Source: an uncultured Bacteroidales bacterium
GTDB taxonomy: Bacteria > Bacteroidota > Bacteroidia > Bacteroidales > JAGOPY01
Reading direction: 5' to 3'
DNA length: 64,000 nucleotides
Assembly (NCBI GenBank): GCA_963701785.1
Contig: CAVPBC010000002.1
Span: 2,484,458-2,548,457, forward strand
Position 1 is the first letter of the stretch, and each line of letters opens with the position of its first letter. Positions 714 through 61,150 of the stretch are shown here, piece after piece. The position numbers were made by a program, and so were the translations under genes. The notes beneath the pieces were generated by a model that had not been told where the DNA came from, searched no databases, and worked only from the letters and a program-made list of their open reading frames with translations.

Positions 714-840
714 GAATGTTTAATGCTTAATGTTTAATGTTTAATGCTTAATGAGAAATGAGGAATTTAAATTAAATCTTTAAATTTTGAATCCATTAAT
801 AATTAAGCATTAAACATTCAACATTAAACATTAGACATTA
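714..840. repeat. Two opposed heptamer arrays (AATGYTT units and their complement) forming a long hairpin between the two tRNA-Leu genes
   Basis: 714-756 gaatgtttaatgcttaatgtttaatgtttaatgcttaatgaga; 795-840 is the complementary array; 714-731 is the exact reverse complement of 802-819 (18 bp). Confidence 0.85.
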
Positions 841-1020: not shown

Positions 1021-3696
1021 ATGGCTGCGGTCATTATTCTTTTTTTAATGCTGCCCATAGCTGTCTATTCTCAATGTAAAAGGCAATTTGTCCTGGATCA
1101 ATCTGTTGCAATTGAAGGTATTACGAATGGCATTGATACTTATTATCAAAACCTGATCATCCAGGATATAGCACTGGCTGAACAGAAAACCTTCCGTGAG
1201 ATCTCCCTTCAGTTTGACTTCAAAGTTCAATATCTTACGGACCAATGCAGACCAGGGAAACTTGAGATCAGGGTTTTACCGGTGGTCATTAATAGCTTGC
1301 CCTTATTATACCAGGGTTTTGATATTTCATCTTCCATCAGACCTGAGCGGGCAGACATGGTGTTCCACTTGGTTCAGCATAGCGGATTTGTTACGGATAG
1401 CCTTGTTTTTTTCGATATTCCCCTGGAAACAGATTCCAGCCTGTACACTTCCCTGACTTCAATTATAAAAGACACCTCATCGGTTGGGTCTGTTATCTTT
1501 TTCCAGGGCTGTATTCCATTTTTCCAAATCATCCTATGAGAAATTTCGCGACCGTATCCTGCAAATCGACCAGTATTATGCTGCTTCCCTCTTAGCTGAC
1601 AGCACCCTCATATGGGCTGGCCATGGATTCCTGTCGGAGACTGGTAATCGGGCAGAAATGATATTACGGCAGCTTGAGCTGGAAAGGATCATCAAATATA
1701 TCCGGCCACAACGATTTAATCCTGATTTCGGATCCGGCTTGAATGATATTAATGAGCTGACTTCCAAATACCAGCAACTTATAAGGGTCAACAACCGGAT
1801 GAAAGCCATTATTGAATATAACAGCTTTCTGCCTGAAAGTCAGGACAGGACCATTTCGGAAATTGAACTCTTGAAAAACTACTTGGACAGGTTGGATTAT
1901 TACCATTTCCTTGCTTTTGGGACAGATTTCAGATTTGTGAATTATATAGATTCATTAGCCACACCGGAATTCAACAATGCAGGTATAATTAAATTCAGCA
2001 GGAATTTATCCATTATGTTGGGGTCAATCGTTATAACTGGCGTACTTGGTGCCGGATCCTTGCAATGGCTTGATGGAGAGAGGAGATAAATTCGAAATGG
2101 AAGGTAATCAATCTCAGGGCAATTATTTATTATAAATCAGCCTATTACCTTTCTCAGCTCATGAATCTTCATGATATGCGATCAACTGCATTCCAGCAGC
2201 TTGGCCGGATGATGAACAGTATTTCTTCCTCTTATCTCGAAATTTCCAGGAAGTCGGCCAATGCGGAAAATCCTGCCCTGGCCGCTCAATATTTCCAGGA
2301 AGCATTCAGATTTTAACGGATAAGCAGTTTGCATCTTTTAGACCTGGCGGGATCTCATGAGTACGAAGAATGGCTATTATCAGAATTTTGAAAACCAGGC
2401 TATTAAATATATCGACCTGAAGAATTACAATAAGGCACTCATATCTTGTTGAGATTCAGAATCATTGCCAGACTGATGCTTCATATACTTGCCCTGAAGA
2501 TTTTCATCAATGGATGCGCACGGTAAGGGATGGAATTTATCATGATCTCCTGAAAAAATCACAGAACTTATTGCTCAGGGATGAATGGCAGGAAGCCGGA
2601 AAAGCTTTCGGCAGGCGATAGCCACCAGGATGAAAGCTGGATACAGGATTGAAAAAGATCGGACTGGAATCGGACCTTGAAGTTAAATTCCAGCAGATCC
2701 AATATGAAGAACTTATCGAAGAGGGCATCAGGTATCAGGAATAAACAGGAATTCAGTTCAGCATTATTTTATTTCAATAAAGCGGAGTTCCTGAAGAAGT
2801 CGGGCCTGACCGTCATTCATCCCGGGCTTGTACATTCCGCCAGGAGACTGCCCGCCAGGAAATACTTCAAATGCTTTCAGATGGACGTGTTAAAGGCGTG
2901 GGGTAAAAACTATGAAGGTGCCCGGATCAGCCTGGAACAGGTGGAAGGGATGCTTGCTGATTACCGGATACCCGGAAAGTGACAGCCTGACGGGGCAGTA
3001 TTTTGCATTGAAGGAAAGATCAGCAATAAAGAATGTGAAATGGTTACCGCAGAATTTAACGATTTGCTTGAACAGGTAAAATCTGCCAAAGCCGACAGCG
3101 ATTTCATCCTTGCCCGCAAAATCGCTTATGATGCGGTAATATTGTCCCTTGATCATCTTAATTGTCGGAATTAGAGATAGTGAAGCCTGGTATCAGAAAG
3201 TGATCTTGAAACACCGGCTGATTTCCAGAAAATGGAAAAACAACTTAATGACTTGATAGACGCATCCTGCACCGATTATCTGAAATCGTTCCAGGACCTG
3301 AAAAATTATTATTACCGGCATAAACTCCTGGAGCAGGGGGTCGTCTTCATACCTCTTTTTGACGGGTGGTCCGTGCAGATAATCCGGAATTCCTTGAAGG
3401 AATGTTGAATCACTATATCAACATTGAATGATTTTGATCATGCTTTCAGACTATTGGAGAGGCTGCATGAACTTGGAGTGCCTTCAAAACCACTGTCAGC
3501 TCAGCAAAAATCGGTGGCGGAATTTTATGCCAGGCGGGATGCAAAGAATCCTGCTATCACCGAACCCTGGGAAACCCTTGGATCATATACGGGCCGGGAC
3601 AAATGGTACCGGCCTTTTAACTGGAGATATAAATTCACATGGTTATCGGCTACCGGTTGGAAATTTAAGTATTGGCCTTTTATATGGAAGAATTAA
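1021..3696 (+). pseudogene. Large hypothetical secreted protein, heavily fragmented (many frame hops and in-frame stops)
   Basis: Starts with a signal-peptide-like MAAVIILFLMLPIAVYSQC at 1021. ORFs 892..1539, 1484..2089, 2677..2982 and 3424..3696, plus short unlisted pieces, read as one coding track that changes frame many times. No recognisable domain. Confidence 0.4.
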
Positions 3697-5378: not shown

Positions 5379-6173
5379 ATGAAAATCAAAAAACTGGCCC
5401 TGGTTACGGGAGCCACAGGCGCCATCGGGAAGGCAATTGCCCGGCAGCTTGTCACAACAGGTGACTACAGGGTATTGATGGTGGTAAAGAATGAAGATAA
5501 AGCACTTAAGGTCATGGAAGACATCAGGCGGCTTACCCGTTCTGTTGATATACGCTACGTGGTTGTCGACCTGTCCCGGAAATCCCAGGTCTTTGATCTG
5601 GCCTCTTCTATCAAGGAACCCGTTCATATCCTGGTCAATAATGCTGCCATAACCCCGCATAATAGAACTGAAACACCTGAAGGCATCGAAATGCAATTCG
5701 CTGCAAATGTGCTGGGCTATTACTGGATGATGGAGGCATTGACGCCCCATTTAAAAGCAGGTGGCCCATCGAGGGTGGTCAATGTGGCCAGTTACTGGGC
5801 CGGAGGACTTGACATGGCTGACCTGGAATTCCGGCGCCGGCAATATGACAACGATTCATCCTACCGCCAGTCAAAACAGGCCGACCGGATGCTGACGGCC
5901 GCTTTTGCCAGGCGGTTTGAACCTTTAAATATAACGGTCAATGCCTGCCACCCGGGCGATGTGAACTCGGCACTGAGCAATTCTATGGGTTTTGGCGGTC
6001 ATGAAACACCGGACGAAGGAGCAGATACGCCTGTCTGGCTGGCAACAAGCCCTGAAGTTGAAGGAATTACCGGGAAGTATTTCGAGCACAGGAAACAGCA
6101 AGTCTGCAGCTTCAGCCGTAACCTGAAGGAGGTTGAGAAGTTGTTTGAGGTCTGCGGGGTATTGGTCTATTAA
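5379..6173 (+). CDS. Short-chain dehydrogenase/reductase (SDR) family oxidoreductase
   Basis: TGATGAIG Rossmann motif, NNAA, catalytic YRQSK (YxxxK). Start chosen at MKIKKLALVTG. Confidence 0.85.
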   Translation: MKIKKLALVTGATGAIGKAIARQLVTTGDYRVLMVVKNEDKALKVMEDIRRLTRSVDIRYVVVDLSRKSQVFDLASSIKEPVHILVNNAAITPHNRTETPEGIEMQFAANVLGYYWMMEALTPHLKAGGPSRVVNVASYWAGGLDMADLEFRRRQYDNDSSYRQSKQADRMLTAAFARRFEPLNITVNACHPGDVNSALSNSMGFGGHETPDEGADTPVWLATSPEVEGITGKYFEHRKQQVCSFSRNLKEVEKLFEVCGVLVY

Positions 6174-6176
6174 CTC

Positions 6177-6256
6177 TTTAGAGGGTCTCAAAACGCAGTC
6201 AGAGTTTTAAATCGGATTTGACCTGTCAGCGTTTGAAAGACTTGACAGCCTCTAAA
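6177..6256. terminator. Inverted-repeat structure between convergent SDR and PhzF-like genes
   Basis: Outer 8-bp inverted repeat tttagagg (6177-6184) / cctctaaa (6249-6256); inner hairpin ctgtca-N14-tgacag (6223-6248). Confidence 0.35.
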
Positions 6257-7041
6257 TTATAAATGTATTTCACCCTTAAGATATGTCACTGCTTTACCAC
6301 CGATATCCACCCTGTCGCCATTCAGTCGGCAAAAGATTAAGCCTCCGCGGCGTGAGAGCTGTCGGGCGTTCATCTCGGTTTTTCCCAGTTTTTCCGCCCA
6401 GAATGGAATGAGGACAGTATGGGCCGAACCGGTCACCGGGTCTTCGTCAACTCCCACACGAGGCGCAAAAAAGCGGGAGACAAAGTCAACTTTGTCACCA
6501 GGCGCAGTTACAATCACGGCACGGGCATCGGTCTTTTCCAGTCTGCGGAAATCCGGGATCAATGCCTCTATTTCCTTTTGCGATTTATAGAGAAGAAGAT
6601 AGTCCTCCTTTCCCCTGTAGCATTGCAGCGGGGTAATATTTAAAGATTGCACGAAATCATCGGGCAATGCGGTTCGTCTGGGGTTTATTGCCGGGGAAAT
6701 CCAGGATGAGAAGGTCGCCTTCCCTGGTCACATTAAGCAGCCCGCTCCTGGATTCAAATGAGATTATTCTCACCGCTAAATCCAAGATCGTGAAATATGA
6801 CATGCGCTGATGCCAGGGTGGCATGACCGCAAAGATTTACTTCGACTTTCGGCGTGAACCAACGGATATGAAATCCTTCATCTTTTTTAACGAAAAATGC
6901 TGTTTCCGAGAGGTTATTTTCCATGGCTATTTTTTGCATGGTCTCATCCGGGAGCCATTGCTCCAACGGACAAACCCCGGCCGGATTGCCGCCAAAAAGC
7001 CGGTCAGTAAACGCATCAACCTGGTAGAATGGAACTAGCAT
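6257..7041 (-). CDS. PhzF-family isomerase (YddE-like), two frame breaks
   Basis: N-terminus MLVPFYQVDAFTDRLFGGNPAGVCPL...SETAFF...RWFTPKVEVNLCGHATLA and C-terminus DPVTGSAHTVLIPFWAEKLGK are typical PhzF motifs. The middle (6668-6753) reads in another frame. Confidence 0.8.
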
Positions 7042-7078: not shown

Positions 7079-9019
7079 GCACTCAGATTCAACAATATAC
7101 ATATCTATTTCACCCTTGTTCTTTGCCTGTATCTTGCCCCGGTGGGTGCAGTTAAACCGTTCTTTAATAAACTCATAAGTGGTGCCGGAGATATTTACCT
7201 GGCCCGGGATGCCGCTTGATTCCATGCGGCTGGCCGTATTTACGGCATCGCCCCAGATGTCGTATGCAAATTTGTTTTTGCCGACAACACCGGCAACCAC
7301 CTGTCCCGTATGGATTCCGATCCTTAACTCCCAGTAATCCTTACCCTGATTTTCACGGTCAATTTTCAGTTGCTCCATGAATGCTTTGATTTCCAGTCCG
7401 GCCCTGACAATATCAACAGGATTGGAATCATTGGCAACAGGGATGCCACCGGCACACATATAAGCATCACCAATGGTTTTGATCTTTTCCAGGTTATGTT
7501 TGTCGATGATCTTATCGAATTCGAAAAAGCAATAATTCAATTCTTCGATCAATTGCTTGCGCGGTAAGTTTTTCGGCAATTTTCGTAAATCCTTTGAAAT
7601 CGGTGAACAGGACCGAAACTTTATCGTAATGCTTCGGGTGTTGCAGATGCCTTTTTCCTTAAGTTCATTGGCAGTTTCGTGAGGTAAGATATTTAAAAGA
7701 AGTTTTTCAGAGCGATCTTTTTCATCTTCAATGATTTTCTTGGTCTTCCTGACATATTTATAGCGGTTAAAAAGTCCAATGGCCATGACGAGCAGCAGAA
7801 ACCCTGTGCTGCCTGCGGCGTAAGTGGCAATTCGCTGCCGTTGAAGGCTTAATTCCTGAAGGGCATTATCCTTGGTAAGAAGATCGATATCACCCTGTTT
7901 CTTCTCTATATCATAACTCAACGTCATGAATTGAAGCTTTTTATCCATTTCTTCATTATAAAGAGAATCCTTCATAACAATGTATAATGCCTGGTATTTA
8001 TAGGCATTGGTATAATCCTTCGTTTTTGAATAAACATTTGCCAGGCCTTCGTATATTTCTTTCAGTTCATTTTTGGTCCTGATTTCTTCACCTGTTTTTT
8101 GCGCCTCCCGGTATGCAGCTATTGCCAGTGGAAGATTTCCCTGTGCATTAAATGTTTTAGCAAGCCCTAAAAAAGATTGTGTCATTTCAAGCTTGGCATC
8201 CAGGCTTTTAGCTCTTTCGATGGCTTCTTTCTGGAATTTGACTGCCTGCTCGTATTCACCCTGCCGGGCATATACTTTGCCTATATTATTCAATGTGTAT
8301 GCGACTTTAACGCTTTCGACTTTTTCATATGCTTCCAGGGAAGTGTTGAAATAGAACAAGGCTGAATCATACTGGTTCCTTTTTAGGAAGATTTCCCCCA
8401 TATTGACAGCTACTGTCCCGATGGCTTGATAATCCCCGAGTTCATTGCTGAGCGGAAGTGCTCTGTTATAAAATTGCAGGGCCATGTCATTTGTGGCTTC
8501 CTTATTGGAATAAACTGCCCCTATATTGACCAGTGCCGTGGCAATCCTTAATTTATCGTCAATTTCTTCAGCAACCTTTAAGGACTGAAATAGGTATTCG
8601 ATCGCTTTCGTGTCATCACCCTGGTTGAAATGGACCATACCGAGATTGTTTGACATATTGGCCACACCCACTTTTTCGCCGATAGAATCAAAAGTGCTTA
8701 ATGATTGTTGCCAGTAGATCAGCACATCGAAGTATTCCGCCTTGAAATAATGGCCCATGCCGATGCTTTTCAGGGCGTATCCCAATCCTCTTTTATAGTT
8801 CAGTTTTTCTGCAAGTTCTCTTGCCTGTGTGCCATAAAAGATGGTTGCTTCAGGATCAGAATTGACTAACCTGTTAGCGAGAGTGATAAGTGTATTAACT
8901 TTTGTGGTATCATCTTCGGCGCCAGCCACAACAGCTTTCAGACTGTCGATCTGGCTGTTTTGAGCAGAACACAGGGCAGAAATTAAAATAAAGGAAATGC
9001 ACAAAAGGAATTTTTGCAT
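7076..9019 (-). CDS. TPR-repeat / transmembrane / class III adenylate-guanylate cyclase, with an internal out-of-frame stretch
   Basis: Signal sequence, about 9 TPR-like repeats, one TM helix, then LLNILPHETANELKEKG and GDAYMCAGG...YDIWGDAVNTASRMES cyclase motifs. The expected FTDFKGFT metal-binding strand is readable only in another frame (about 7557-7632). Confidence 0.85.
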   Translation of the reverse strand: MQKFLLCISFILISALCSAQNSQIDSLKAVVAGAEDDTTKVNTLITLANRLVNSDPEATIFYGTQARELAEKLNYKRGLGYALKSIGMGHYFKAEYFDVLIYWQQSLSTFDSIGEKVGVANMSNNLGMVHFNQGDDTKAIEYLFQSLKVAEEIDDKLRIATALVNIGAVYSNKEATNDMALQFYNRALPLSNELGDYQAIGTVAVNMGEIFLKRNQYDSALFYFNTSLEAYEKVESVKVAYTLNNIGKVYARQGEYEQAVKFQKEAIERAKSLDAKLEMTQSFLGLAKTFNAQGNLPLAIAAYREAQKTGEEIRTKNELKEIYEGLANVYSKTKDYTNAYKYQALYIVMKDSLYNEEMDKKLQFMTLSYDIEKKQGDIDLLTKDNALQELSLQRQRIATYAAGSTGFLLLVMAIGLFNRYKYVRKTKKIIEDEKDRSEKLLLNILPHETANELKEKGICNTRSITIKFRSCSPISKDLRKLPKNLPRKQLIEELNYCFFEFDKIIDKHNLEKIKTIGDAYMCAGGIPVANDSNPVDIVRAGLEIKAFMEQLKIDRENQGKDYWELRIGIHTGQVVAGVVGKNKFAYDIWGDAVNTASRMESSGIPGQVNISGTTYEFIKERFNCTHRGKIQAKNKGEIDMYIVESEC

Positions 9020-10828: not shown

Positions 10829-10871
10829 AAATAAAATGCAAAATGAAATGAAAAATGAAAAATGAAAAATG
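10829..10871. repeat. Heptamer array (AAAATGA units, about 6 copies)
   Basis: aaataaaatgcaaaatgaaatgaaaaatgaaaaatgaaaaatg; 20 nt from the tRNA-Arg 3' end. Confidence 0.85.
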
Positions 10872-10890: not shown

Positions 10891-10966
10891 TGGTGATCTC
10901 GCCGCGATTCGAACGCGGGACCCACAGCTTAGAAGGCTGTTGCTCTATCCACTGAGCTACGAGACC
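10891..10966 (-). tRNA. tRNA-Arg (anticodon TCT), CCA encoded
   Basis: Reverse complement GGTCTCGTAGCTCAGTGGATAGAGCAACAGCCTTCTAAGCTGTGGGTCCCGCGTTCGAATCGCGGCGAGATCACCA folds as a cloverleaf with anticodon loop CTTCTAA. Confidence 0.9.
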
Positions 10967-24014: not shown

Positions 24015-26305
24015 ATGCTCAGCAGGTTATATATTCTGGCCCTTACTTTTTACGCTTTCATCAGCTATGGACAGGATCATTCCATCAAAGTCTATTCGGA
24101 TAATCGCCTCGAATACGATTTCCCCTGGGCAGGAGGCATGAATTCGTGCCAGTTCGGCAAGGTGGATATGAATTTAGACGGACTGAAAGACCTGGTCGTG
24201 TTTGACAGGGCCGGTGACCGGATCATGCCTTTCCTGGTCGTCCAATCAGGTAGTAATTTCGAATATAAATATGCCCCTGAATTTGCAGAGAATTTCCCTG
24301 TCCTTTCGCACTGGGCGATTTTTGCAGATTACGACCTCGACGGAAAAGAGGATATCTTCACTTATTCACCCGGGTACGCGGGCTGAAAGTATACCGCAAC
24401 ACCTCGGGAAGTACGCTGGAATTCACCCTGGAAGTTTTTCCATTCCTGACTTCTTTCCAGGGTGGGGGATATGTCAATATTCTCGTAACCTATGCCGATT
24501 ACCCCGCCATTACTGACCTCGACGGGGACGGCGATCTTGATATCCTAACTTTCTGGGGACTGGGCTCATTTGTCGAAAAGCACCGGAATATGTCGATGGA
24601 AAAATACGGGCATGCCGATTCACTGGATTTTGAAAAGACGGAATTTTGCTGGGGATATTTTGCTGAGAGCGAAGAATCGAACGATTTGACGCTGGATACC
24701 TGCCTGAGATGTGGGGATGCGGGGAGGCGGGGAAGCGGGGAGGCGTGGATGCGGGGAGACGGGGAGCGCCATACCGGCTCAACTTTTCTGGTACTTGACT
24801 TAAACGATGATAATCTGTCGGACCTTTTGCTTGGAGATGTGGATTATCCCAACCTGGTTGCGCTGTATAACGGGGGAAGTCCGGATACCGCCCGGATGGT
24901 TTCTTATGACTGGCAATATCCGCCTTACGACAAATCCGTTAACCTGTTTTCAATGCCTGCAGCATTCAATGATGATTTTGACTTCGATGGAATTAAAGAC
25001 CTAATGGTCTCACCTTTTGACCCTAATCCTTTCCTGACGGAAAATTTCAGGAGTGTTTGGCTTTACCATAACGACGGGACCAATAGCGCCCCTCTTTTTC
25101 ATACAAAGTCCCTGTCATTTATACAGGACCGGATGATAGACCTGGGAGCCGGTGCATACCCGGTGTTCTATGATATCGACCAGGATGGCCTGGTGGATTT
25201 GTTTGCCGGCAATTATGGCTATTATGACACCTCTTATTTAGATGAGTTTCTTATCCTTCATACCGAGCAAACCGGTAAGCTGGCTTTTTTTAAGAATACC
25301 GGAACACAGGAAACACCTGCCTTTACATTTGCCGAAAGGGATTTCGCCACAGTATCCGCCCTTGATCTCAGGGGAATTGTGCCTGCTTTCGGTGATTTAG
25401 ATGGAGATGGCGATACGGATATGCTTCTTGGATGTGAAACCGGGCAGATAATTTTATACCTGAATTCCGCAGGAACCGGAGAACCTGTAAACCTGGAATT
25501 TAACCAGTCAGATTACCAGGGGATCGATGTTGGAGCATACAGCACTCCGCAGCTTTTTGATCTTGACAGGGACAACCTGGATGACCTGATCATCGGTGAA
25601 AAGGGAGGTAATCTCAATTATTTCCGAAATACCGGGACATTCCAAAAACCTGCATTTACCCTGGTGACAGACAGCCTGGGGAAAGTGAATGTGACCGATC
25701 CTGCCGTTTCGCTTGACGGGTACAGTGTGCCATTCTTTTTCAGGGATGCGGCCGAACATACTCATTTGCTGGTTGGTTCGGAACAGGGAGTTATTTATTA
25801 TTTTACCGGGATTGACGGTAACCTGGCTGGAAAATTCACTGAATCCGACACCCTCGCCGGTCTCATCGGTTTGGAGGAATTCAATGCAGACCGCGGATAC
25901 CGGACGGCCCCGGCTTTATTTGACCTTGATCAGAACGGCCACCCGGATTTAATTGCAGGAAATTTCTCAGGCGGAATGGAATACTTTGCCAGTTCTGAAA
26001 ATCCTCCTGTCGCCGGCCTGGATGACATGGATTTATTAATTCCTGATGTTGTAATTTACCCGGTACCGGCGCCAGGTCAATTTAATATAAGTATGACCGA
26101 TCCGGGTAACTGGCGTATTGCAGGTGTGAAGATCCTGACAATGGATGGCCGGGTAATTCATTCTTATGTTTATGATAAAATGCTTCAATTAGCAATAAAC
26201 ATCAACCTCGTTTCCAAAGGTTTATATGTTTGCCAGGTTCTTTTAAAAGAGATGAATACAATGCAAACCCATTCCTGTCAAAGTAAGTTAGTCCTGGTTT
26301 TTTAA
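24015..26305 (+). CDS. FG-GAP/VCBS-repeat protein with T9SS C-terminal sorting domain, one frame break near 24380
   Basis: Signal MLSRLYILALTFYAFISYGQ; repeated Ca-binding DxDxDG loops (DLDGDGDLD, DIDQDGLVD, DLDGDGDTD, DLDRDNLDD, DLDQNGHPD); C-terminus VIYPVPAPGQFNISM...LYVCQVLLKE is CTD-like. Confidence 0.75.
24708..24770. repeat. G-rich octamer array (GAKGCGGG x about 7) inside the FG-GAP CDS; six GGGG tracts
   Basis: gatgtggg gatgcggg gaggcggg gaagcggg gaggcgtg gatgcggg gagacggg gagcgcc; encodes CGDAGRRGSGEAWMRGDGER. Confidence 0.85.
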
Positions 26306-34380: not shown

Positions 34381-34525
34381 AATTGTGAGATTTAATTAGT
34401 TATCCGAAATTAACTCATAATCAAAGCAAAATATATAGGACAATCTACCAATCGCATGTTTGGATTGATTGTTCCATTGTTTCAACGTTCCAATGTCCCG
34501 GTTTCCAGATTGCATAAGCTGAATG

Positions 34526-34594
34526 CCGACCGCCGACCGCTGACCGCCGACCGCTGACCGCCGACCTCCGACCTCTGACCTCCGACCCCCGACC
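34526..34594. repeat. GC-rich heptamer array (CCGACCG drifting to CCGACCT/CCGACCC, about 10 copies)
   Basis: ccgaccgccgaccgctgaccgccgaccgctgaccgccgacctccgacctctgacctccgacccccgacc, in the divergent intergenic region between 34380 and 34689. Confidence 0.9.
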
Positions 34595-39538: not shown

Positions 39539-42500
39539 CTAATCGCTGTAAGAAATCTGCATCAGTGAAACTTCAAAATCCCCGCCTTCAGGATAGAAGG
39601 TGATCCAGTTATTATCATCGCTGAACCATTTGTACTGTGCACTGATCCTCACCACAAACTCAAAAAGGTCTTCCCCGGCAGGGACTTTTATCACCACACC
39701 GCCATTTTTTGTCTGGTCCTTGCCAAAACTGATGATGAGCTTATATTCATCTTTGGAAACATTCCGCGCCCTGAAGAATATGTAATTGCTTTTACGGTCT
39801 TTGACAGGAACGGGGATGAAATCAAATTTATGCTGTGTGTTGTTTGAGATAAGTAATGGTTCTTTATTGATCTGGACAATAGATCGTTCTGTAAGCAGTT
39901 TTAAAATGCGGCGGACCATTTCTTTGGGATATTCCTCTTCGGGCTTTAATAAGATAGAAGCCCTGTATGATTCAATGGCATTGTCATAAATTTTCGAAGC
40001 AAAGAATTTATCGGCATCGGCTATTGACTTATCATATTCTTCCTGGATCAACTGCCTTTTTTTCATAATTTGCTCATTGACCAGTTTCAGCTTATCCAGG
40101 GGATAAAGTTCTTCAGGCTTGAGTTCCAGTGCCCGGTCATATTGCAGTTTGGCCATTTCATAGTCTTGCTGATCAAAGTAATTGTCAGCTTTGGATATGG
40201 TTATCTGGTAGGTCTGATCGCGCTGTGCTTCCAGGGCATCCAGGGTACGGTTAATTTCGATTACCTGTTTATTTGGAAATTCCTCGGCAGGTTTGATGGT
40301 AAGGGCTTCCTGGTATGCTGCCCTGGCTTCTTCATATTTTTCATTTTTCATAAAATCATCCGCACTGGCAATAATTAAATTATATTGCTCATCGATTTCC
40401 TTTTGTTTCCTGATCTCTTCTTGCCGGGTTTCTTCCTGCCTGGCAATTTCTGCGATTGCAACATTTATTTCAGCAATCTTTCCCTGCGGGTAACTTTCCC
40501 CGGCCTTCAGGCCGAGGGCTGCTTGATAACCTGCCATAGCTTTCTGGTAATCCTTTGCCTGGAAAGCTAAATCGGCACCTGAGATGGCATCTCCGTATTG
40601 CTTATCGAGGGCTTCTTTAGCAGCGATCTCGCCGAGGATGCCATTGATCTCGTCGATCTTTCCCTGCGGGTAACTTTCCCCGGCCTTCAGGCCGAGGGCT
40701 GATTGATAACCTGCCATGGCTTTCTGGTAATCCTTTGCCTGGAAAGCTAAGTCGGCAGCTGAGATGGCATCTCCGTATTGCTTATCGAGGGCTTCTTTAG
40801 CAGCAATATCACCCAGGATGCCATTGATCTCGTCGATCTTTCCCTGCGGATAACTTTCCCCGGCCTTCAGGCCGAGGGCAGCTTGATAACCTGCCAAAGC
40901 TTTCTGGTAATCCTTTGCCTGGAAAGCTAAATCAGCAGCTGAGATGGCATCTCCATATTGCTTATCGAGGGCTTCTTTAGCAGCAATCTCGCCGAGGATG
41001 CCATTGATCTCGTCGATCTTTCCCTGCGGGTAACTTTCCCCGGTCTTTAGACCGAGGGCCGCTTGGTAACCTGCCATTGCTTTCTGGTAATCCTTTGCCT
41101 GGAAAGCTAAATCAGCACCTGAGATGGCATCTCCGTATTGCTTATCGAGGGCTTCTTTAGCAGCGATATCGCCGAGGATGCCATTGATCTCGTCGATCTT
41201 TCCCTGCGGGTAACTTTCTCCGGTCTTTAGGCCGAGGGCTGATTGATAACCTGCCAGGGCTTTCTGGTAATCCTTTGCCTGGAAAGCCAAATCGGCAGCT
41301 GAGATGGCATCTCCGTATTGCTTATCGAGGGCTTCTTTAGCAGCGATATCGCCGAGGATGCCATTGATCTCGTCGATCTTTCCCTGCGGGTAACTTTCCC
41401 CGGTCTTTAGGCCGAGGGCCGCTTGGTAACCTGCCATGGCCTTCTGGTAATCCTTTGCCTGGAAAGCTAAGTCGGCACTTGAGATGGCATCTCCGTATTG
41501 CTTATCGAGGGCTTCCTTAGCAGCGATATCACCGAAAATGCCATTGATCTCGTCGATCTTTCCCTGCGGATAACTTTCCCCGGCCTTCAATCCGAGGGCC
41601 GCTTGATAACCTGCCAGGGCCTTCTGGTAATCCTTTGCCTGGAAAGCTAAGTCGGCAATTGAGATGGCATCTCCATATTGCTTATCGAGTGCTTCATTAG
41701 CTGCGATTTCTCCGAGGATACCATTGATCTCGTCGATCTTTCTTTGCGCGTAACTTTCCCCGGCCTTCAGGCCGAGGGCAACTTGATAACCTGCTAAAGC
41801 TTCCTGGTAATTTTTGGATTGCATGGCCAGGTCTGCAACCGAGATGGCATCCAGATATTGGGTATTTTTAACTTCCAGAGCTGCCTGTTCAACGGAATCA
41901 TTATCGATTTCGAAAACCTTTTCCGCCTGGTAAGCGGCTATACCTTCCTGGTATTCCTGCTTGGTGATGGCATTCTCCTCCCCGGCAATCTCATCCCGGT
42001 TTTTACCGCCACTTGCCTGTTTACTGGCATTTGTTGCAAGAATAGTTTCGATCTCCTGGATCTTCTGCTGGGGATATTTCTCTTCAGGATTGATCCCGGC
42101 GGCATTGCGGAATTCAATCAGTGCAGCCTCATAGTCCCTGTCATACATTAGCTGATCGGCATTTGTGACAGCTTTTACATATTTATCCCGGATCCCTAAA
42201 ATTTCGTTGATCATAGTGATCTGGTCAAGCGGATATTGCTCCTTCGGGAATAATGCACTTGCAGACCGGTATTGCTCGCGGGCTTCCACATATTCATCGG
42301 AGAAAAACAGGCGGTCGGCCCCTGTGATAAGGTTATTATATACTTCTCTATTGCCGGCCAGGTTCGATAATATCGTATTGATCTCATCAACCTTAACTTT
42401 CGGATACTGTTCCAGCGATTTGATCCCTATCGACCTGTTGTATTCATCTCGTGCTTCTTCGTAACGTTCTTCCTTAAAAAGGTTATCTGCCCGGGCAATA

Positions 42501-43636
42501 GCCTGTGTATATGCATCTTCCTGTGTCTTTCTCAGGCTGAGCGCTACATTGATATCGTTGATCCGCTGTTTTGCGTAATCTTCTTCAGGTTTAAAATGCA
42601 GGGCATTCTTATATTCGATCATCGCCCGTTCATAGTCCTGCTCGCTGAACAGCTTGTCGGCAAGGGCAATGGTAACTTCATAACTTGACCTGTTGGATTT
42701 GGAAATGTCCATCAGGGCAATGTCTATTTTTTCAAGCATGCTTTTCGGATATTCATCAGCAGGCTTGATAGACTGGGCCTGCAGGTATTTCTCCTGCGCC
42801 AGCTCAAATTCTTTCGATATATAATAATTATCCGCTTCTTCAATGATGGAGGCATAAGAATCCCAGGCAATTTTGAGATCCTGCGCCTCTGCAAGTTTCT
42901 GTTTCGGCAGATTTTCATCAGGCTTGAGCAGAATGGCCGCTTCCAGCAACCTGATGGCATCGTCATATTTATTTCTCGAAATAGCAAAATCGGCATCCTG
43001 AAGTAAGGATTCATAATTACTCGTTGCTGTATTACTTGCCGTTAATAATGTTTGGACCTGAATTGTTTTCTCTTTCGGGTATGCTTCTACAGGTTTAAGT
43101 TTGGCTGCGTTTTGATATTCAGCCAGTGCATTTTCCAGTTGTAAACCTTTCAGGAACAAATCGCCATTAATGATGCTCTTCTGGTATTTTTCCTCCAGGA
43201 GCCTGTTATCTTCCTGGGTCCTGGTTATCTCCTGCACCCGTCCGGTAGCATAGGCATCGTTTGGAATTATCGTCAATGCTTCCTGGTAAACCTTCAAAGC
43301 AGCATCAAGATCTTTCTTATCATACAGGTCATCTGCAAGCTGGACCTTCTGGGTGTAAAGGCTGTTTTGATACATCTGGACCTTGATCATGTCAAGGGAT
43401 TGCTGCAGGCGGTCCTTTGGATATTGATCTTCAGGCGCAAGCCGGACAGCAATCTGGTAAGAAGCTTTGGCGTTGATGTAATCCCCTTTTGTAAAGTAAG
43501 CGTCGGCCATTTCGATGGTCTTCCTGTATTCTTCAGGATTGTCCTGGGACTGTCCTGTAAAGGCAAAAAAAGCCAGCAAGATCAGCGATAAGAGCACCGT
43601 CTTATGTCGATAGGTCATATGTAGTTTTAGTAGCAT
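39539..43636 (-). CDS. Giant TPR-like repeat protein (about 20 units of a roughly 60-aa motif ending E.YP..KI.EIN..L) with a distinct about 130-aa C-terminal domain
   Basis: Signal/TM TVLLSLILLAFFAFTGQSQ (start may be Met at 43618). Repeat motif recurs along the protein; eight central units are near-identical. C-terminal domain of unknown family. Confidence 0.7.
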   Translation of the reverse strand: MLLKLHMTYRHKTVLLSLILLAFFAFTGQSQDNPEEYRKTIEMADAYFTKGDYINAKASYQIAVRLAPEDQYPKDRLQQSLDMIKVQMYQNSLYTQKVQLADDLYDKKDLDAALKVYQEALTIIPNDAYATGRVQEITRTQEDNRLLEEKYQKSIINGDLFLKGLQLENALAEYQNAAKLKPVEAYPKEKTIQVQTLLTASNTATSNYESLLQDADFAISRNKYDDAIRLLEAAILLKPDENLPKQKLAEAQDLKIAWDSYASIIEEADNYYISKEFELAQEKYLQAQSIKPADEYPKSMLEKIDIALMDISKSNRSSYEVTIALADKLFSEQDYERAMIEYKNALHFKPEEDYAKQRINDINVALSLRKTQEDAYTQAIARADNLFKEERYEEARDEYNRSIGIKSLEQYPKVKVDEINTILSNLAGNREVYNNLITGADRLFFSDEYVEAREQYRSASALFPKEQYPLDQITMINEILGIRDKYVKAVTNADQLMYDRDYEAALIEFRNAAGINPEEKYPQQKIQEIETILATNASKQASGGKNRDEIAGEENAITKQEYQEGIAAYQAEKVFEIDNDSVEQAALEVKNTQYLDAISVADLAMQSKNYQEALAGYQVALGLKAGESYAQRKIDEINGILGEIAANEALDKQYGDAISIADLAFQAKDYQKALAGYQAALGLKAGESYPQGKIDEINGIFGDIAAKEALDKQYGDAISSADLAFQAKDYQKAMAGYQAALGLKTGESYPQGKIDEINGILGDIAAKEALDKQYGDAISAADLAFQAKDYQKALAGYQSALGLKTGESYPQGKIDEINGILGDIAAKEALDKQYGDAISGADLAFQAKDYQKAMAGYQAALGLKTGESYPQGKIDEINGILGEIAAKEALDKQYGDAISAADLAFQAKDYQKALAGYQAALGLKAGESYPQGKIDEINGILGDIAAKEALDKQYGDAISAADLAFQAKDYQKAMAGYQSALGLKAGESYPQGKIDEINGILGEIAAKEALDKQYGDAISGADLAFQAKDYQKAMAGYQAALGLKAGESYPQGKIAEINVAIAEIARQEETRQEEIRKQKEIDEQYNLIIASADDFMKNEKYEEARAAYQEALTIKPAEEFPNKQVIEINRTLDALEAQRDQTYQITISKADNYFDQQDYEMAKLQYDRALELKPEELYPLDKLKLVNEQIMKKRQLIQEEYDKSIADADKFFASKIYDNAIESYRASILLKPEEEYPKEMVRRILKLLTERSIVQINKEPLLISNNTQHKFDFIPVPVKDRKSNYIFFRARNVSKDEYKLIISFGKDQTKNGGVVIKVPAGEDLFEFVVRISAQYKWFSDDNNWITFYPEGGDFEVSLMQISYSD
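40470..41870. repeat. Eight in-phase 180-bp tandem repeats (60-aa units) inside the TPR-like gene
   Basis: The motif cggccttcaggccgagggc recurs at 40501, 40681, 40861, 41041, 41221, 41401, 41581 and 41761. One adjacent pair I compared by eye had 12 mismatches in 180. Confidence 0.95.
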
Positions 43637-49561: not shown

Positions 49562-49742
49562 AGCCTTTTGACTTATCTGACGGGTTGTATCGGGTGTTAT
49601 TTTCCATGCCTCAAATATATGAAATACTGACCCGGATTATCTCCCGTAACCCCTTAACTTATCACCAAAATTGATGTTAATAAGTCGTGAAAAAAAAGAA
49701 AAAAACATGTATTACCGGCACATCTGATACTAACTAAGTCAT

Positions 49743-49791
49743 GACTAATGACCAATGACCAATGACTAATGACCAATGACTAATAACCAAT
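49743..49791. repeat. Heptamer array GACTAAT/GACCAAT x7
   Basis: gactaatgaccaatgaccaatgactaatgaccaatgactaataaccaat; encodes the last codons and the stop (49780-49782) of the minus-strand gene. Confidence 0.9.
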
Positions 49792-50868
49792 CACCTCCCC
49801 ATCCAGGGTCACGTATCCCTTCATCAGATTTGCCGTCAGGCAGGAGTGAACAGGCAGGACACCAAGTATGTCCCCGATCTTGATTTCTTCGATGAACTCC
49901 CTTGGGGCGCGCACGATACCATGTTCCTGCGAGAGATTGGCCAGGTAGGCCCCCGCGATCGGGCGTGACCATTCTTTTTCGGAAATGCGCACTATATAGC
50001 CGAACAGGTGCTCCCCGTTACTCTTATATAGGAAATCTTTTGAGAAATGAATAGCCCCCCCGTAAATCGTAAGTTCGTTACGCAGCAGGCTTTTCCCGAC
50101 AACCGGGCAGGCTACCGCAACAGCGATCTGATCCAGTGTGCATGATCCGAGCGAGAATTGCATCAGGTCATAGAAAACAAAATTGCCGGGCCTGATCTCA
50201 TCAACGGCTGAGAAATCTTCAACAAGGCTGCAACCTGGCGTATCCCCGACGGATATGGTCAGTTCAGGCCAGGCCTCCAGGTAACGCTCCTTGAGGTAGG
50301 TCATTTTTTCGACAGTATCTTTATAAATATCGAGGATCTCCTCCTGGCTGTCGGCCGAATAAGTATGCCCGGAATGGGTAAGGAAGCCTTTGAAATTCAA
50401 CCGGTTAGAACTGGCAAGAAATTCAAGCATCCGGTCAATTTCATTCAGGTCTTTCCAGAGTACGCCTGAACGGTGATGGCCGGTGTCAATTTCTATATAA
50501 AAACCGACTTTGAAGGTTAAGCCATTCTCGACCGATTGCAGTATCGTCGAAGTATCTCCAAGAATATTCAGGTTAAGTTCCGCTGCCAGCTCGCTGATCT
50601 GTCCCAACTCGGCAAGGTTAACCGGGAATGCGATCGTGATATCGCGCCAGCCATAAGCGGAAAAAAATTTGGCCATACTGACTGAAGAAACCGTAATACT
50701 GTGAATGCCAAGCTTACGGAACCAGTTACCGACGAATGCAGAATTATGAGTCTTGAAATGCGGCCTGAAATGCGTATCGCTTTTTTTGGCCTTTTCGTAC
50801 ATCCTGGAAATATTCGATAAACACTGCTCTTTATTCAGAAGAAGTGTTGGTTTTGTTATACTGATCAT
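49780..50868 (-). CDS. D-threonine aldolase / D-serine dehydratase-like (alanine racemase N-terminal fold) PLP enzyme
   Basis: Start chosen at MISITKPTLLLNKEQ; RPHFKTHNS contains the PLP-lysine context of the DSD1/D-TA family; about 362 aa. Confidence 0.65.
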   Translation of the reverse strand: MISITKPTLLLNKEQCLSNISRMYEKAKKSDTHFRPHFKTHNSAFVGNWFRKLGIHSITVSSVSMAKFFSAYGWRDITIAFPVNLAELGQISELAAELNLNILGDTSTILQSVENGLTFKVGFYIEIDTGHHRSGVLWKDLNEIDRMLEFLASSNRLNFKGFLTHSGHTYSADSQEEILDIYKDTVEKMTYLKERYLEAWPELTISVGDTPGCSLVEDFSAVDEIRPGNFVFYDLMQFSLGSCTLDQIAVAVACPVVGKSLLRNELTIYGGAIHFSKDFLYKSNGEHLFGYIVRISEKEWSRPIAGAYLANLSQEHGIVRAPREFIEEIKIGDILGVLPVHSCLTANLMKGYVTLDGEVIGY

Positions 50869-59423: not shown

Positions 59424-59460
59424 TCTATTTCAACATTCAACATTCAACATTCAACATTAT
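59424..59460. repeat. Heptamer array (CAACATT x4 plus degenerate flanks) abutting the PspC-domain gene stop
   Basis: tctatttcaacattcaacattcaacattcaacattat; the stop codon 59457-59459 overlaps the last unit. Confidence 0.9.
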
Positions 59461-61040
59461 TTTCTTACAAGCCCCTCATTCGTCATGATGAACAACGTCC
59501 CGATCTTTTCACGGCGTGAAATATTTTTATGATATCCCATGAAAGGATGAAGATGGTCATCAAGACTTACAGCAATTCCTTCAGGAAGCTGCACCTCAAC
59601 GCGTGCTTCCTGTTTTCTCCATTTATCATCTTCTGGCACGACGAAACTGTCGGACAACAAAAGGGTGTCGTTTTTCATCTGCCAGTCATAGTTTATTCTC
59701 TCAGCTCTCTCCGTAGCCTCGTCTACAAATGCTCCCCTGGCCGCTGTAACAATTATCATCCGTGCCAGGCTGTCTTTACTGGGCTTGAATTTTAGCAGTG
59801 GAATACCGTAAAGCACGTTTTTATCATTGGTAACAGCCGTTCTCATTTCCGGGAAATAGAATACCCCGGACCTCTCCCATTCGAAATCTTCAGGGAGACT
59901 GCGGTCTACTTTGACATGTAATGTATCATGACTGATGACCTGCAAAATTGATTCCCTGCTGAATTCTCCGGGCACCCGAAATGAGTTGGCAACTTTAAAC
60001 CCGAATACCAGCGTGATAACCAGGGCGCAGAGCCAGATTATGCCAGCTATCCCGTTGATGAATTTTGCCCGCGGAAGGTTAAAGATAAGCCGGATACCGG
60101 CCCAAAGCATCATAAGCAAGGGTATCCCCGCAAGAACCATCATGCCTGTGGCAAAGGTGCGTAAATCGGCATCATTGCCAAAAATCCTCTCTGTGACTGA
60201 ATAAAGCGGGAATGCCTGCAGGCCGGCATCTTCCATCATTGCAACTACCGGGAAGCGGAATAATATCGACAGGTAAGCTATTGTTAAGGCAATACCCACC
60301 AGCAGGATCAAAATCCCCACGAAAATAAGCAGGATTCTCAGCAGCACTCTCCCAACTTCACCGAGACTATCGAGGAACTGGTCCCGATGATTGCTTTTAA
60401 ATTCCTCTTTCTGTGTCCGGTAGGTTGCCTTTGCCTTCGATGTGAAGTCGCTGATCTTATTTTTAATCTGATGCACCTCCTCACCTATTGATTTCTCGAT
60501 ATTGGAAATGTTGACCGGTTCTCCTTTCATTTCGAGCCTTTCGGCAGTAGTGCGTGCTTCCGGGACAACCAGCCAGAGGATCAGGTATACCAATACTCCG
60601 AACCCGGATATCAGAATGGAAATAATGAAAATGACCCTTACCCAAACCGGGTCCATGTTGAAGTAGGCACCCAGGCCGCTGCAAACCCCTCCGATCACTT
60701 TCCTTTCGGGATCCCGATAAAGCCTTTTCGGCATGCTGGCATAGGAGGGCTCATTCCCGCTTCCGGCGGATTCATCATCCATGGCAAAATCAGCCGGCTG
60801 ACCCAATATGGCAATCACTTCAGCGATGTCATCAATGGTAATTACTTCTTTACTGCCTGAGATCTTTTTTTGCAGGAGCTCGGCTATCCTGGCTTCAACA
60901 TCCGAGATCACTTCCTCTTTTCCTTCAAAGCCCCTGAAATGAGATTTGATGGCTTCAAGATAACGGTGAAGTTTTTCATAAGCATCCTCTTCAATATGGA
61001 AGACGAACCCGCTGATGCTGATTGTTAAGGTCTTTTTCAT
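59457..61040 (-). CDS. PspC-domain membrane protein (527 aa)
   Basis: RLYRDPERKVIGGVCSGLGAYFNMDPVWVRVIFIISILISGFGVLVYLILWLVVP is the PspC domain; further TM helices and a C-terminal extracytoplasmic region. Confidence 0.85.
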   Translation of the reverse strand: MKKTLTISISGFVFHIEEDAYEKLHRYLEAIKSHFRGFEGKEEVISDVEARIAELLQKKISGSKEVITIDDIAEVIAILGQPADFAMDDESAGSGNEPSYASMPKRLYRDPERKVIGGVCSGLGAYFNMDPVWVRVIFIISILISGFGVLVYLILWLVVPEARTTAERLEMKGEPVNISNIEKSIGEEVHQIKNKISDFTSKAKATYRTQKEEFKSNHRDQFLDSLGEVGRVLLRILLIFVGILILLVGIALTIAYLSILFRFPVVAMMEDAGLQAFPLYSVTERIFGNDADLRTFATGMMVLAGIPLLMMLWAGIRLIFNLPRAKFINGIAGIIWLCALVITLVFGFKVANSFRVPGEFSRESILQVISHDTLHVKVDRSLPEDFEWERSGVFYFPEMRTAVTNDKNVLYGIPLLKFKPSKDSLARMIIVTAARGAFVDEATERAERINYDWQMKNDTLLLSDSFVVPEDDKWRKQEARVEVQLPEGIAVSLDDHLHPFMGYHKNISRREKIGTLFIMTNEGLVRK

Positions 61041-61150
61041 TATATTGATATATTGTTAAATTGTTAGATTGTTATATTGTTCCAGTGTTCGTCTTCCACG
61101 TCCCATCAGTCTCCCAGTCTTCCAGTCTTACAGTCGTTACAGTCGTAGCG
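61041..61150. repeat. About 14-unit octamer array that morphs from TATATTGT to CAGTCTTC/CAGTCGTT, bridging the PadR stop and the PspC start
   Basis: tatattga tatattgt taaattgt tagattgt tatattgt tccagtgt tcgtcttc cacgtccc atcagtct cccagtct tccagtct tacagtcg ttacagtcg tagcggtc. Confidence 0.8.

Follow-up and report, generated by a model that had tools for sequence, protein, structure and literature searches.

Spacers between bacterial tRNA genes are usually seen as short, featureless linkers, which raises the question of why two tRNA-Leu genes of an uncultured Bacteroidales bacterium should be separated by a long hairpin whose two arms are facing arrays of one heptamer. We addressed this question in a 64,000-nt stretch of contig CAVPBC010000002.1 (assembly GCA_963701785.1; hereafter the window, with positions counted from its first nucleotide), in which ARAGORN and Rfam place tRNA-Leu(GAG) at 621-705 and tRNA-Leu(CAG) at 849-933, both on the + strand and neither with an encoded CCA (Rfam tRNA scores of 48.4 and 51.2 bits, respectively). 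The intervening spacer is therefore 143 nt long (706-848), not the 144 bp given in an initial annotation of the locus. Our answer, which we hold with as much doubt as belief, is that the hairpin is a palindromic microsatellite grown within the transcript of two tRNAs, in a genome where 7-8-bp arrays are plentiful, an inert structure that would be removed as the tRNAs mature.

Nearly all of the spacer is taken up by an AATGTTT/AATGCTT array and its complement around an AT-rich centre, as the initial annotation had described. The left arm (715-760, + strand) reads AATGTTT, AATGCTT, AATGTTT, AATGTTT, AATGCTT, AATGAGA and AATG; the right arm (794-840, + strand) reads CATTAAT, AATTAAG, CATTAAA, CATTCAA, CATTAAA, CATTAGA and CATTA, its unit being the reverse complement of the left one. 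Both were delimited by Tandem Repeats Finder (TRF) and an inverted-repeat search, and both are paired in the minimum-free-energy (MFE) structure. TRF reports AATGTTT x5.6 at 715-753 (90% matches), extending to 760 at a period of 21, and CATTAAA x6.7 at 794-840 (82% matches); each arm thus has the three or more head-to-tail 5-11-nt units of high identity that define a heptamer array. The inverted-repeat search pairs 46-nt arms at 715-760 and 794-839 that are 87% complementary and 33 nt apart, and finds four more arm pairings in other registers; with arms up to 150 nt apart, this is the longest inverted repeat in the window, the runner-up having 32 nt and 78%. Within it, GAATGTTTAATGCTTAAT at 714-731 is, as had been noticed, the exact 18-bp reverse complement of ATTAAGCATTAAACATTC at 802-819. 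The centre (761-793, + strand) forms a small apical stem of its own, has a weak 7-nt periodicity at 772-793 and contains a near-promoter string, TAAATTTTG (781-789, + strand). On the + strand, a 9-nt linker, TGTTCTTTG, stands between tRNA-Leu(GAG) and the left array (on the 706-714 side), and an 8-nt linker, ATCTAAGAT, lies 3' of the right arm before tRNA-Leu(CAG); of the distances proposed earlier, 10 nt after the first tRNA agrees with our array start at 9-10 nt, while the 9 nt before the second becomes 8 nt.

The initial annotation had proposed comparing the fold with shuffled sequence, and by that comparison the spacer is far more stable. As RNA, the + strand reaches -44.9 kcal/mol, whereas its 200 dinucleotide shuffles average -17.55±2.83 (z -9.66) and none is as good; the - strand reaches -44.3 kcal/mol (z -10.1), and the spacer folded as DNA -30.1 kcal/mol (z -7.8). 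The MFE structure has 54 pairs with unbroken runs of up to 17 bp and makes up 1% of the ensemble. Forcing the arms into registers shifted by -21, -14, -7 or +7 nt left -16.6 to -24.7 kcal/mol, compared with -38.1 for the main register, a gap of more than 13. That shifted registers keep this much stability, and that the MFE structure is so small a part of the ensemble, bears out the suggestion that several pairing registers are possible, one of them being clearly preferred.

The surroundings of the spacer suggest that it is transcribed together with both tRNAs. A putative Bacteroidetes-type -7 box, TACTTTTG (601-608, + strand), lies 12 nt upstream of tRNA-Leu(GAG), its consensus being presumably the TAnnTTTG of Bacteroides promoters; box and spacing are the same in a syntenic relative, L121, and TAnnTTTG boxes precede the tRNA operons at other loci. 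The spacer (706-848) holds no exact TAnnTTTG, the only near-match being TAAATTTTG at 781-789. After tRNA-Leu(CAG), a terminator-like hairpin, AGATGCCGG-TTGAAAAG-CCGGCATCT, followed by TAATTTA (940-972, hairpin 940-965, + strand), is the likely end of the unit; it is kept in the relatives L121, L125, L126 and L127, and a generic terminator scanner misses it because its T run is short. Judged from these signals, the tRNA-Leu pair looks like one two-tRNA transcription unit running from the 601-608 box to the 940-965 hairpin, which would give a dicistronic precursor. The spacer hairpin itself does not look like an intrinsic terminator: its 46-nt arms are AT-rich, ATCTAAGAT follows them and the terminator scan returned nothing in 706-848. 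A direct array that is not part of the hairpin, AATTCAA x4.6 (564-595, + strand; TRF), adjoins the tRNA promoter upstream. It may be UP-element-like; L122, L125 and L127, though not L121, have similar A-rich arrays at this pre-promoter place.

Does the tRNA pair need the hairpin? We found syntenic loci via two flanking proteins, DUF4301 and the product of the downstream gene; they share the order DUF4301 gene, promoter, tRNA-Leu(GAG), spacer, tRNA-Leu(CAG), terminator and the same downstream gene. In L121 (DUF4301 71% to the window) both tRNAs are identical to those of the window and the spacer is 9 nt long (AAAGCTGAA); in L126 and L127 (downstream protein 63% and 58% to the window) it is 7 nt and 2 nt, respectively. 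The spacer of L125 (downstream protein 71% to the window) has 35 nt, with one AATGTT directly followed by one AAGCATT. That of L122 (DUF4301 82% to the window over the aligned N-terminal part and 89% to L125) begins with CATGTTTAAT and continues AATGTTT, AATGCTT, AATGTTT and AATGCTG; immediately 3' of the tRNA, this short-read contig enters the AATGTTT/AATGCTT array and ends within it. At least two genomes therefore share the AATGYTT array, which is absent or vestigial in equally close ones. On this comparison of sequences, the spacer hairpin is fast-evolving and not needed to make both tRNAs, contrary to the processing structure that the initial annotation had implied. That annotation had taken either a fold no better than shuffles or a spacer absent or unrelated in close relatives to tell against it; the fold does beat shuffles, and the absence is seen in part. 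Compared with a stem cut by RNase III, the hairpin has 54 MFE pairs, which exceed a duplex of about 20 bp in a precursor, here the putative one bounded by promoter and terminator, and the conservation expected of such a stem is lacking, the hairpin being missing from L121, L126 and L127.

Other genomes have built comparable hairpins from other units. A tRNA-Leu(GAG) pattern run against species-representative genomes, which biases the sample to tRNA-Leu loci, matched at least 120 Bacteroidales loci. Among the matches listed, a tRNA-Leu(CAG) is adjacent at 36 loci, mostly in the order CAG>GAG; 11 of the Leu-Leu spacers measure 7-34 nt and 25 measure 69-171 nt, and about 24 of these 25 long spacers hold two facing arrays of 7- or 8-nt units. 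Counting spacers and leaders together, the two arms share one 7- or 8-nt period in 33 of the 37 modules among these matches. The units are of unrelated types (AAGACAA/CTTTTAT, GCGCAGA/CCCTGAG, AAAAGGT/ACTTTTT, a GATTTG type and the octamer AACGGCNN/GCCNTTNN), so that among tRNA-Leu pairs elsewhere, the comparison that had been called for, structure rather than sequence recurs. Besides the spacer, hairpins often occupy the 5' leader, downstream of the -7 box and ahead of the first tRNA, and in one case the stretch from the second tRNA to the terminator, all of these being transcribed parts of Leu operons. Types mix freely: L081 combines an AAGACAA leader with a GCGCAGA spacer, L032 and L097 a GCGCAGA leader with an octamer spacer, and in L100 the leader and spacer hairpins are about 97% identical.

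Copy numbers differ between the arms of these hairpins (9 versus 5 units in L100) and mismatches are periodic, as expected if each arm is homogenised separately; in many stems the consensus units of the two arms are not quite the same, which leaves a mismatch every 3-7 bp (GAC facing ATC, for example, gives C·A in the sense RNA). Collapsed remnants in L057, a member of the CAG>GAG clade, and in L125 fit palindrome instability. Opposed arrays also occur outside Bacteroidales tRNA operons: L216 (about 8146-8380) has three unit types nested in mirrored order on its two arms, and L198 (1981-2100) and L211 (1420-1500) carry near-perfect GC-rich opposed octamer arrays. Since such arrays are present in unrelated GC-rich contigs and at non-tRNA sites, a general mutational route to them exists. 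One AAGACAA-type hairpin, in L100 (6650-6742 in original coordinates), stands right after a stop codon, in an intergenic region 2 kb from the tRNA operon; in its orientation there, G·U pairs replace the C·A mismatches.

Several searches delimit this distribution. Solitary tRNA-Leu(GAG) genes and Gly/Lys-Leu spacers have no opposed arrays, only ordinary promoters, terminators or other hairpins. A metagenome scan for the order GAG>CAG with a 101-161-nt spacer gave 0 matches; another with three octamer units gave 121, mostly unrelated arrays, with a facing array in 15 of the 121, among them GC-rich contigs from outside Bacteroidales and the nested L216; this marks the phenomenon as general but taught little about tRNA linkage. 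None of the plain AATGYTT arrays in 53 viral contigs has an opposed partner, and the AAGACAA cassette pattern has 0 matches in viral contigs. With Rfam 15, only tRNAs pass the gathering threshold in the window and 19 hairpin-bearing loci; at E<=10 the spacer attracts only plant microRNA-precursor matches far below threshold, that is, it resembles a generic long hairpin. The literature searched, which yielded only papers on heptamer repeats and on boxA, does not describe opposed arrays in tRNA operons, and the class appears to be undescribed so far.

Short-period arrays abound in the window. TRF finds at least 15 arrays of period 6-9 in the 64 kb, with many different units and nearly all between open reading frames (ORFs). 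Their density is 0.23 per kb, compared with 0.25 in hairpin-bearing loci and 0.035 in other Bacteroidales loci, a seven-fold gap between the latter two; the 15 arrays in 64 kb thus amount to a mostly intergenic excess of short-unit arrays. Several of the AT-rich units differ from each other by at most one mismatch. The initial annotation had related arrays near 59424 and 61041 to the hairpin. Both are real (TTCAACA x4.3 at 59429-59458 with 100% matches, and an 8-nt TTATATTG array at 61040-61081; TRF), but they are plain direct arrays without an opposed partner and belong to the genome-wide excess of 7-8-bp arrays, not to the hairpin. Inverted-repeat and array-orientation scans found no second opposed-array hairpin within the window.

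How quickly such arrays change can be seen in L248, whose threonyl-tRNA synthetase (ThrRS) has 94% identity to that of the window. In the window, adjacent 8-nt arrays of the TTATATTG and CAGTCTTA types (61040-61144) reach the pspC start codon; the matching arrays of L248 are more homogeneous, and copy number, too, changes between relatives at this ThrRS identity. In L248, a second copy of the whole composite array module lies 3 kb away in sense orientation, upstream of rpmI (2944-3043 and 6049-6317), and it extends to the linker and the bases immediately preceding the ATG. Arrays therefore alter fast and can be copied between sites, and those at pspC and rpmI look like a portable 5'-untranslated-region array module.

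A history that would fit these observations begins in a Lentimicrobium-related Bacteroidales lineage full of intergenic 7-8-bp arrays; the ThrRS of the window is 91-95% identical to those of Bacteroidales metagenome-assembled genomes (MAGs) and 80% to that of Lentimicrobium, and the window encodes type IX secretion system (T9SS) domains. There, AATGYTT would have multiplied head-to-tail to the left of an AT-rich centre and its reverse complement, AARCATT, to the right, presumably by slippage and fold-back template switching. Transcribed with both tRNAs, as the promoter and terminator positions suggest, the spacer would fold into an AU-rich hairpin of roughly 54 bp whose base comes within a few nucleotides of both tRNAs, of tRNA-Leu(GAG) at its 3' end and of tRNA-Leu(CAG) at its 5' end. 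Cuts at the tRNA ends by RNase P and by RNase Z, which we propose because no CCA is encoded, would free the hairpin as a by-product, and RNase III would probably also cut within the long duplex. Arrays in a heavily transcribed, untranslated operon may persist mainly if they pair with themselves, since self-pairing would keep the extra RNA from disturbing tRNA folding or from lying naked to Rho and RNases.

A boxA-like motif accompanies many of these hairpins. The boxA consensus is GYTCTTTAANA (PMC5725501), and the linker GTTCTTTGAAT after tRNA-Leu(GAG) (707-717, + strand) agrees with it at 9 of 11 positions. L122, the nearest relative with the array, has CATGTTTAATAATG there instead, so the resemblance in the window may be chance and we place no weight on it. 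Across the CAG>GAG clade, leaders and spacers are enriched 32-fold in the core GTTCTTT (19 found versus 0.6 expected, P 2.6e-22). A AAGTTCTTT(A/T)A motif occurs in leaders or spacers of L020, L031, L067, L074, L075, L081, L097, L100, L105, L113, L115 and L118, with perfect 11-mer matches to the consensus in L067, L075 and L081; its place in octamer-type hairpins is the apical loop. Such a motif may reflect Nus/boxA-type control of a tRNA operon.

Some of what we found sits poorly with a hairpin that grew by neutral slippage. Across seven modules from six genomes, AAGACAA-type arms do not vary at all, even in the C·A mismatch that recurs every 7 nt, in contrast to their loops and flanks; this argues for some constraint or a recent spread of cassettes, and we cannot account for it by neutral slippage alone. 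At a given position, syntenic relatives carry one hairpin type or another, as if cassettes had been exchanged. In the CAG>GAG clade, whose tRNAs are near-identical, a hairpin is present in about 24 of 30 species although palindromes are known to be unstable, an occupancy that looks more like maintenance than accident. The concentration of opposed arrays near tRNAs (no farther than 250 nt from a tRNA, 24 of 53 arrays are opposed; elsewhere, 5 of 47; Fisher p 1.4e-4) speaks for the microsatellite reading, but it was computed on loci picked for tRNA-Leu and is thus not an unbiased genome census. One possible, though doubtful, alternative is that any long leader or spacer hairpin benefits the pre-tRNA and is selected as a structure, its sequence being free and arrays being the cheapest stem. 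It could offer RNase III an entry that separates the tRNAs, act as an insulator against mispairing between the two tRNAs, which are 78% identical, or between leader and trailer, or shield the RNA from Rho, sometimes with the boxA-like motif. At least five unrelated unit families in the same positions across dozens of species, strictly within transcribed parts, are what such selection would leave, as are an occupancy of about 80% in the CAG>GAG clade, invariant AAGACAA arms amid variable loops and the enriched boxA core; leader-trailer helices are also known to matter for rRNA maturation independently of RNase III (PMC10250234). Yet close relatives with identical tRNAs do with 2-9-nt spacers, and the tests for selection on pairing found no trace of it: there is no sense-strand G·U bias, and in 16 of 26 spacers it is the antisense strand that folds better; duplex energies give a hairpin's own arms no advantage over arms taken from other genomes within its type (mean normalised rank 0.54, p 0.5), and so no sign of co-adaptation; none of 24 pairs shows compensatory change in an RNAalifold analysis of seven AAGACAA modules; and stems mismatched every 3-7 bp would be poor RNase III substrates. 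A further tentative proposal, which we doubt more than we credit, is that the opposed-array hairpins of environmental Bacteroidales are functional pre-tRNA leader and spacer modules. A specific factor, for which a ribonuclease, the Nus/boxA machinery and a protein recognising a periodically mismatched stem are candidates, would read a few conserved cassettes (AAGACAA, GCGCAGA, AACGGCNN, AATGYTT and others); these would pass from one tRNA operon to another and govern how the two tRNA-Leu isoacceptors are processed, how much of them is made or in what ratio.

The swapping of types would equally suit a mobile or copy-pasted palindromic cassette, akin to repetitive extragenic palindromic (REP) sequences and bacterial interspersed mosaic elements (BIMEs) or to miniature inverted-repeat transposable elements (MITEs), whose arms a transposase or recombinase would read as a DNA hairpin or as binding sites and which would land in tRNA operons. 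Such a cassette would account for the clean presence and absence among relatives, for the few types, each kept across species and interchangeable at one site (in leader, spacer, trailer and one non-tRNA site), for the conserved arm mismatches and for the duplicated composite module of L248; we nonetheless think it unlikely. The filled site of the window and the empty sites of L121 (AAAGCTGAA), L126 and L127 share no recognisable flank, and the flanks TGTTCTTTG and ATCTAAGAT are not direct repeats, so that no target-site duplication marks a MITE, although the spacers are too diverged for a strict test. The many near-identical copies of a REP/BIME-like family are lacking too, the 64-kb window having one opposed-array hairpin and no second copy; no transposase-like gene was noticed beside it, arm copy numbers vary between orthologous copies as they would under slippage, and viral contigs hold no AAGACAA match. 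Strand symmetry points in yet another direction. Both strands fold equally well, the DNA fold has z -7.8, no RNA-strand signature was found, and an AT-rich centre would favour extrusion of a cruciform, so that the element might act in DNA, as a cruciform or a symmetric array of protein sites that tunes transcription of tRNA-Leu(CAG), local supercoiling or replication. Ribbon-helix-helix proteins bind arrays of 7- or 8-bp sites cooperatively, which counts towards such a role, as do TAAATTTTG in the hairpin centre (781-789) and an exact TATCTTTG box at the right-arm end in L114. Against it, no one binding protein would suit units that are wholly different from one genome to the next, the arms of most other examples carry too many mismatches to form a stable cruciform, and the hairpins lie downstream, not upstream, of promoters. 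We consider a role in DNA very unlikely. An assembly artefact, through a fold-back or chimeric long-read error, is barely credible. Apparently frameshifted ThrRS and DUF4301 genes do suggest an indel-prone assembly of the window; but the 130-nt hairpin lies well inside a 2.89-Mb contig, flanked by tRNA genes that differ from each other; L122, assembled independently from short reads, shows this array at this site and stops within it; and analogous hairpins occur in both long-read and short-read MAGs.

Read as a palindromic microsatellite, the hairpin has partial counterparts among known elements. REP units of 20-40 nt occur in hundreds of near-identical copies and are tied to RAYT transposases. 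The hairpin resembles REPs and BIMEs as an imperfect palindrome in a transcribed intergenic region, a mosaic of alternating orientation that is present or absent in relatives; it differs in that its arms are tandem arrays, that 64 kb hold one copy and that no link to a transposase was seen. In Entamoeba, tandem repeats of 7-12 bp lie between tRNA genes; there, too, they fill tRNA spacers, but those arrays are eukaryotic, direct and part of long tRNA gene arrays, whereas the present ones are bacterial and opposed. The 3'ETS-leuZ small-RNA sponge of Escherichia coli is a tRNA spacer RNA that acts by a specific single-stranded sequence. It shares with our hairpin its source, a tRNA-Leu precursor, from which a leftover fragment could survive as a stable RNA, although no target or conservation of that kind was seen at the hairpin. 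Quasipalindrome correction, fold-back template switching and SbcCD-dependent palindrome instability are known from point changes and from large inverted duplications rather than from paired microsatellites; they would provide a route for copying one arm onto the other and would explain the remnants in L057 and L125. Like the leader-trailer helices and RNase III stems of rRNA and their boxA/boxB nut-like sites (PMC10250234, PMC5725501), the hairpin is a long duplex in a stable-RNA precursor, and a GTTCTTT(A/T)A motif accompanies many of the Bacteroidales examples; the rRNA helices flank the mature RNA and are essential, whereas the spacer pairs with itself, is dispensable and has a boxA-like string that its nearest relative does not keep. 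Long simple sequence repeats with units of 5-11 nt, heptamers being dominant, are found between bacterial genes, for instance as the cyanobacterial short tandemly repeated repetitive (STRR) sequences and as TAACTGA in Beggiatoaceae, Cyanobacteria and Bacteroidetes; the survey that describes them lists 169 direct repeat sets and one indirect set (PMC4679880). As there, the units of 7-8 nt are head-to-tail and intergenic, occur at many loci per genome and in sporadic lineages, change in copy number and in some cases abut start codons; unlike there, two arrays of one unit face each other and form a hairpin in a tRNA operon, and the units differ from locus to locus where the heptamer repeats have one dominant unit.

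In this Bacteroidales group, then, the leaders and spacers of tRNA-Leu(CAG)/(GAG) operons repeatedly hold hairpins of facing microsatellites that are rapidly gained, swapped and collapsed. If they are passengers, they form a clean natural system in which to follow how palindromes are built and destroyed by slippage and template switching, and how far highly expressed untranslated transcripts tolerate them. If they are selected, they would be a new RNA module defined by structure only, perhaps together with the boxA-like motif, extending Nus-type control beyond rRNA. In practice, the hairpins break short-read assemblies, as in L122, and could serve as strain markers.

Some further features of the window and its relatives deserve mention. 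Three of its genes look frameshifted: ThrRS is broken into ORFs of 375 and 243 amino acids (61614-63478; split at 62741/62747), compared with an intact 646 amino acids in relatives; DUF4301 (77-556) ends at 159 amino acids, compared with 466 in L125; and the gene downstream of the tRNAs (892-2089) is spread over two overlapping frames. Pseudogenes, or an indel-prone (long-read) assembly, would account for this. tRNA-Arg(TCT) (10891-10966) is followed by a (CATTTTT)n array (10833-10871, - strand), and no recognisable hairpin terminator was noticed there. The Gly-Leu spacers (tRNA-Gly(GCC)/tRNA-Leu(GAG)) of two Carboxylicivirga, L061 and L088, contain an apparent truncated 5' half of a tRNA-Leu (GCCCAAGTGCTGAAATTGGTAGACAGGCA...). 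Long arrays with G+C-containing units lie at gene boundaries of the window: GCCGACC x10 at 34525-34594, ATGACCA x8 at 49741-49795 and GGGGAGGC x7 at 24713-24766, the last of which may be inside coding sequence. Finally, a 180-bp unit is repeated 7.4 times with 92% identity at 40476-41811, within an ORF of 1365 amino acids (39539-43636, - strand) that encodes a highly repetitive protein.

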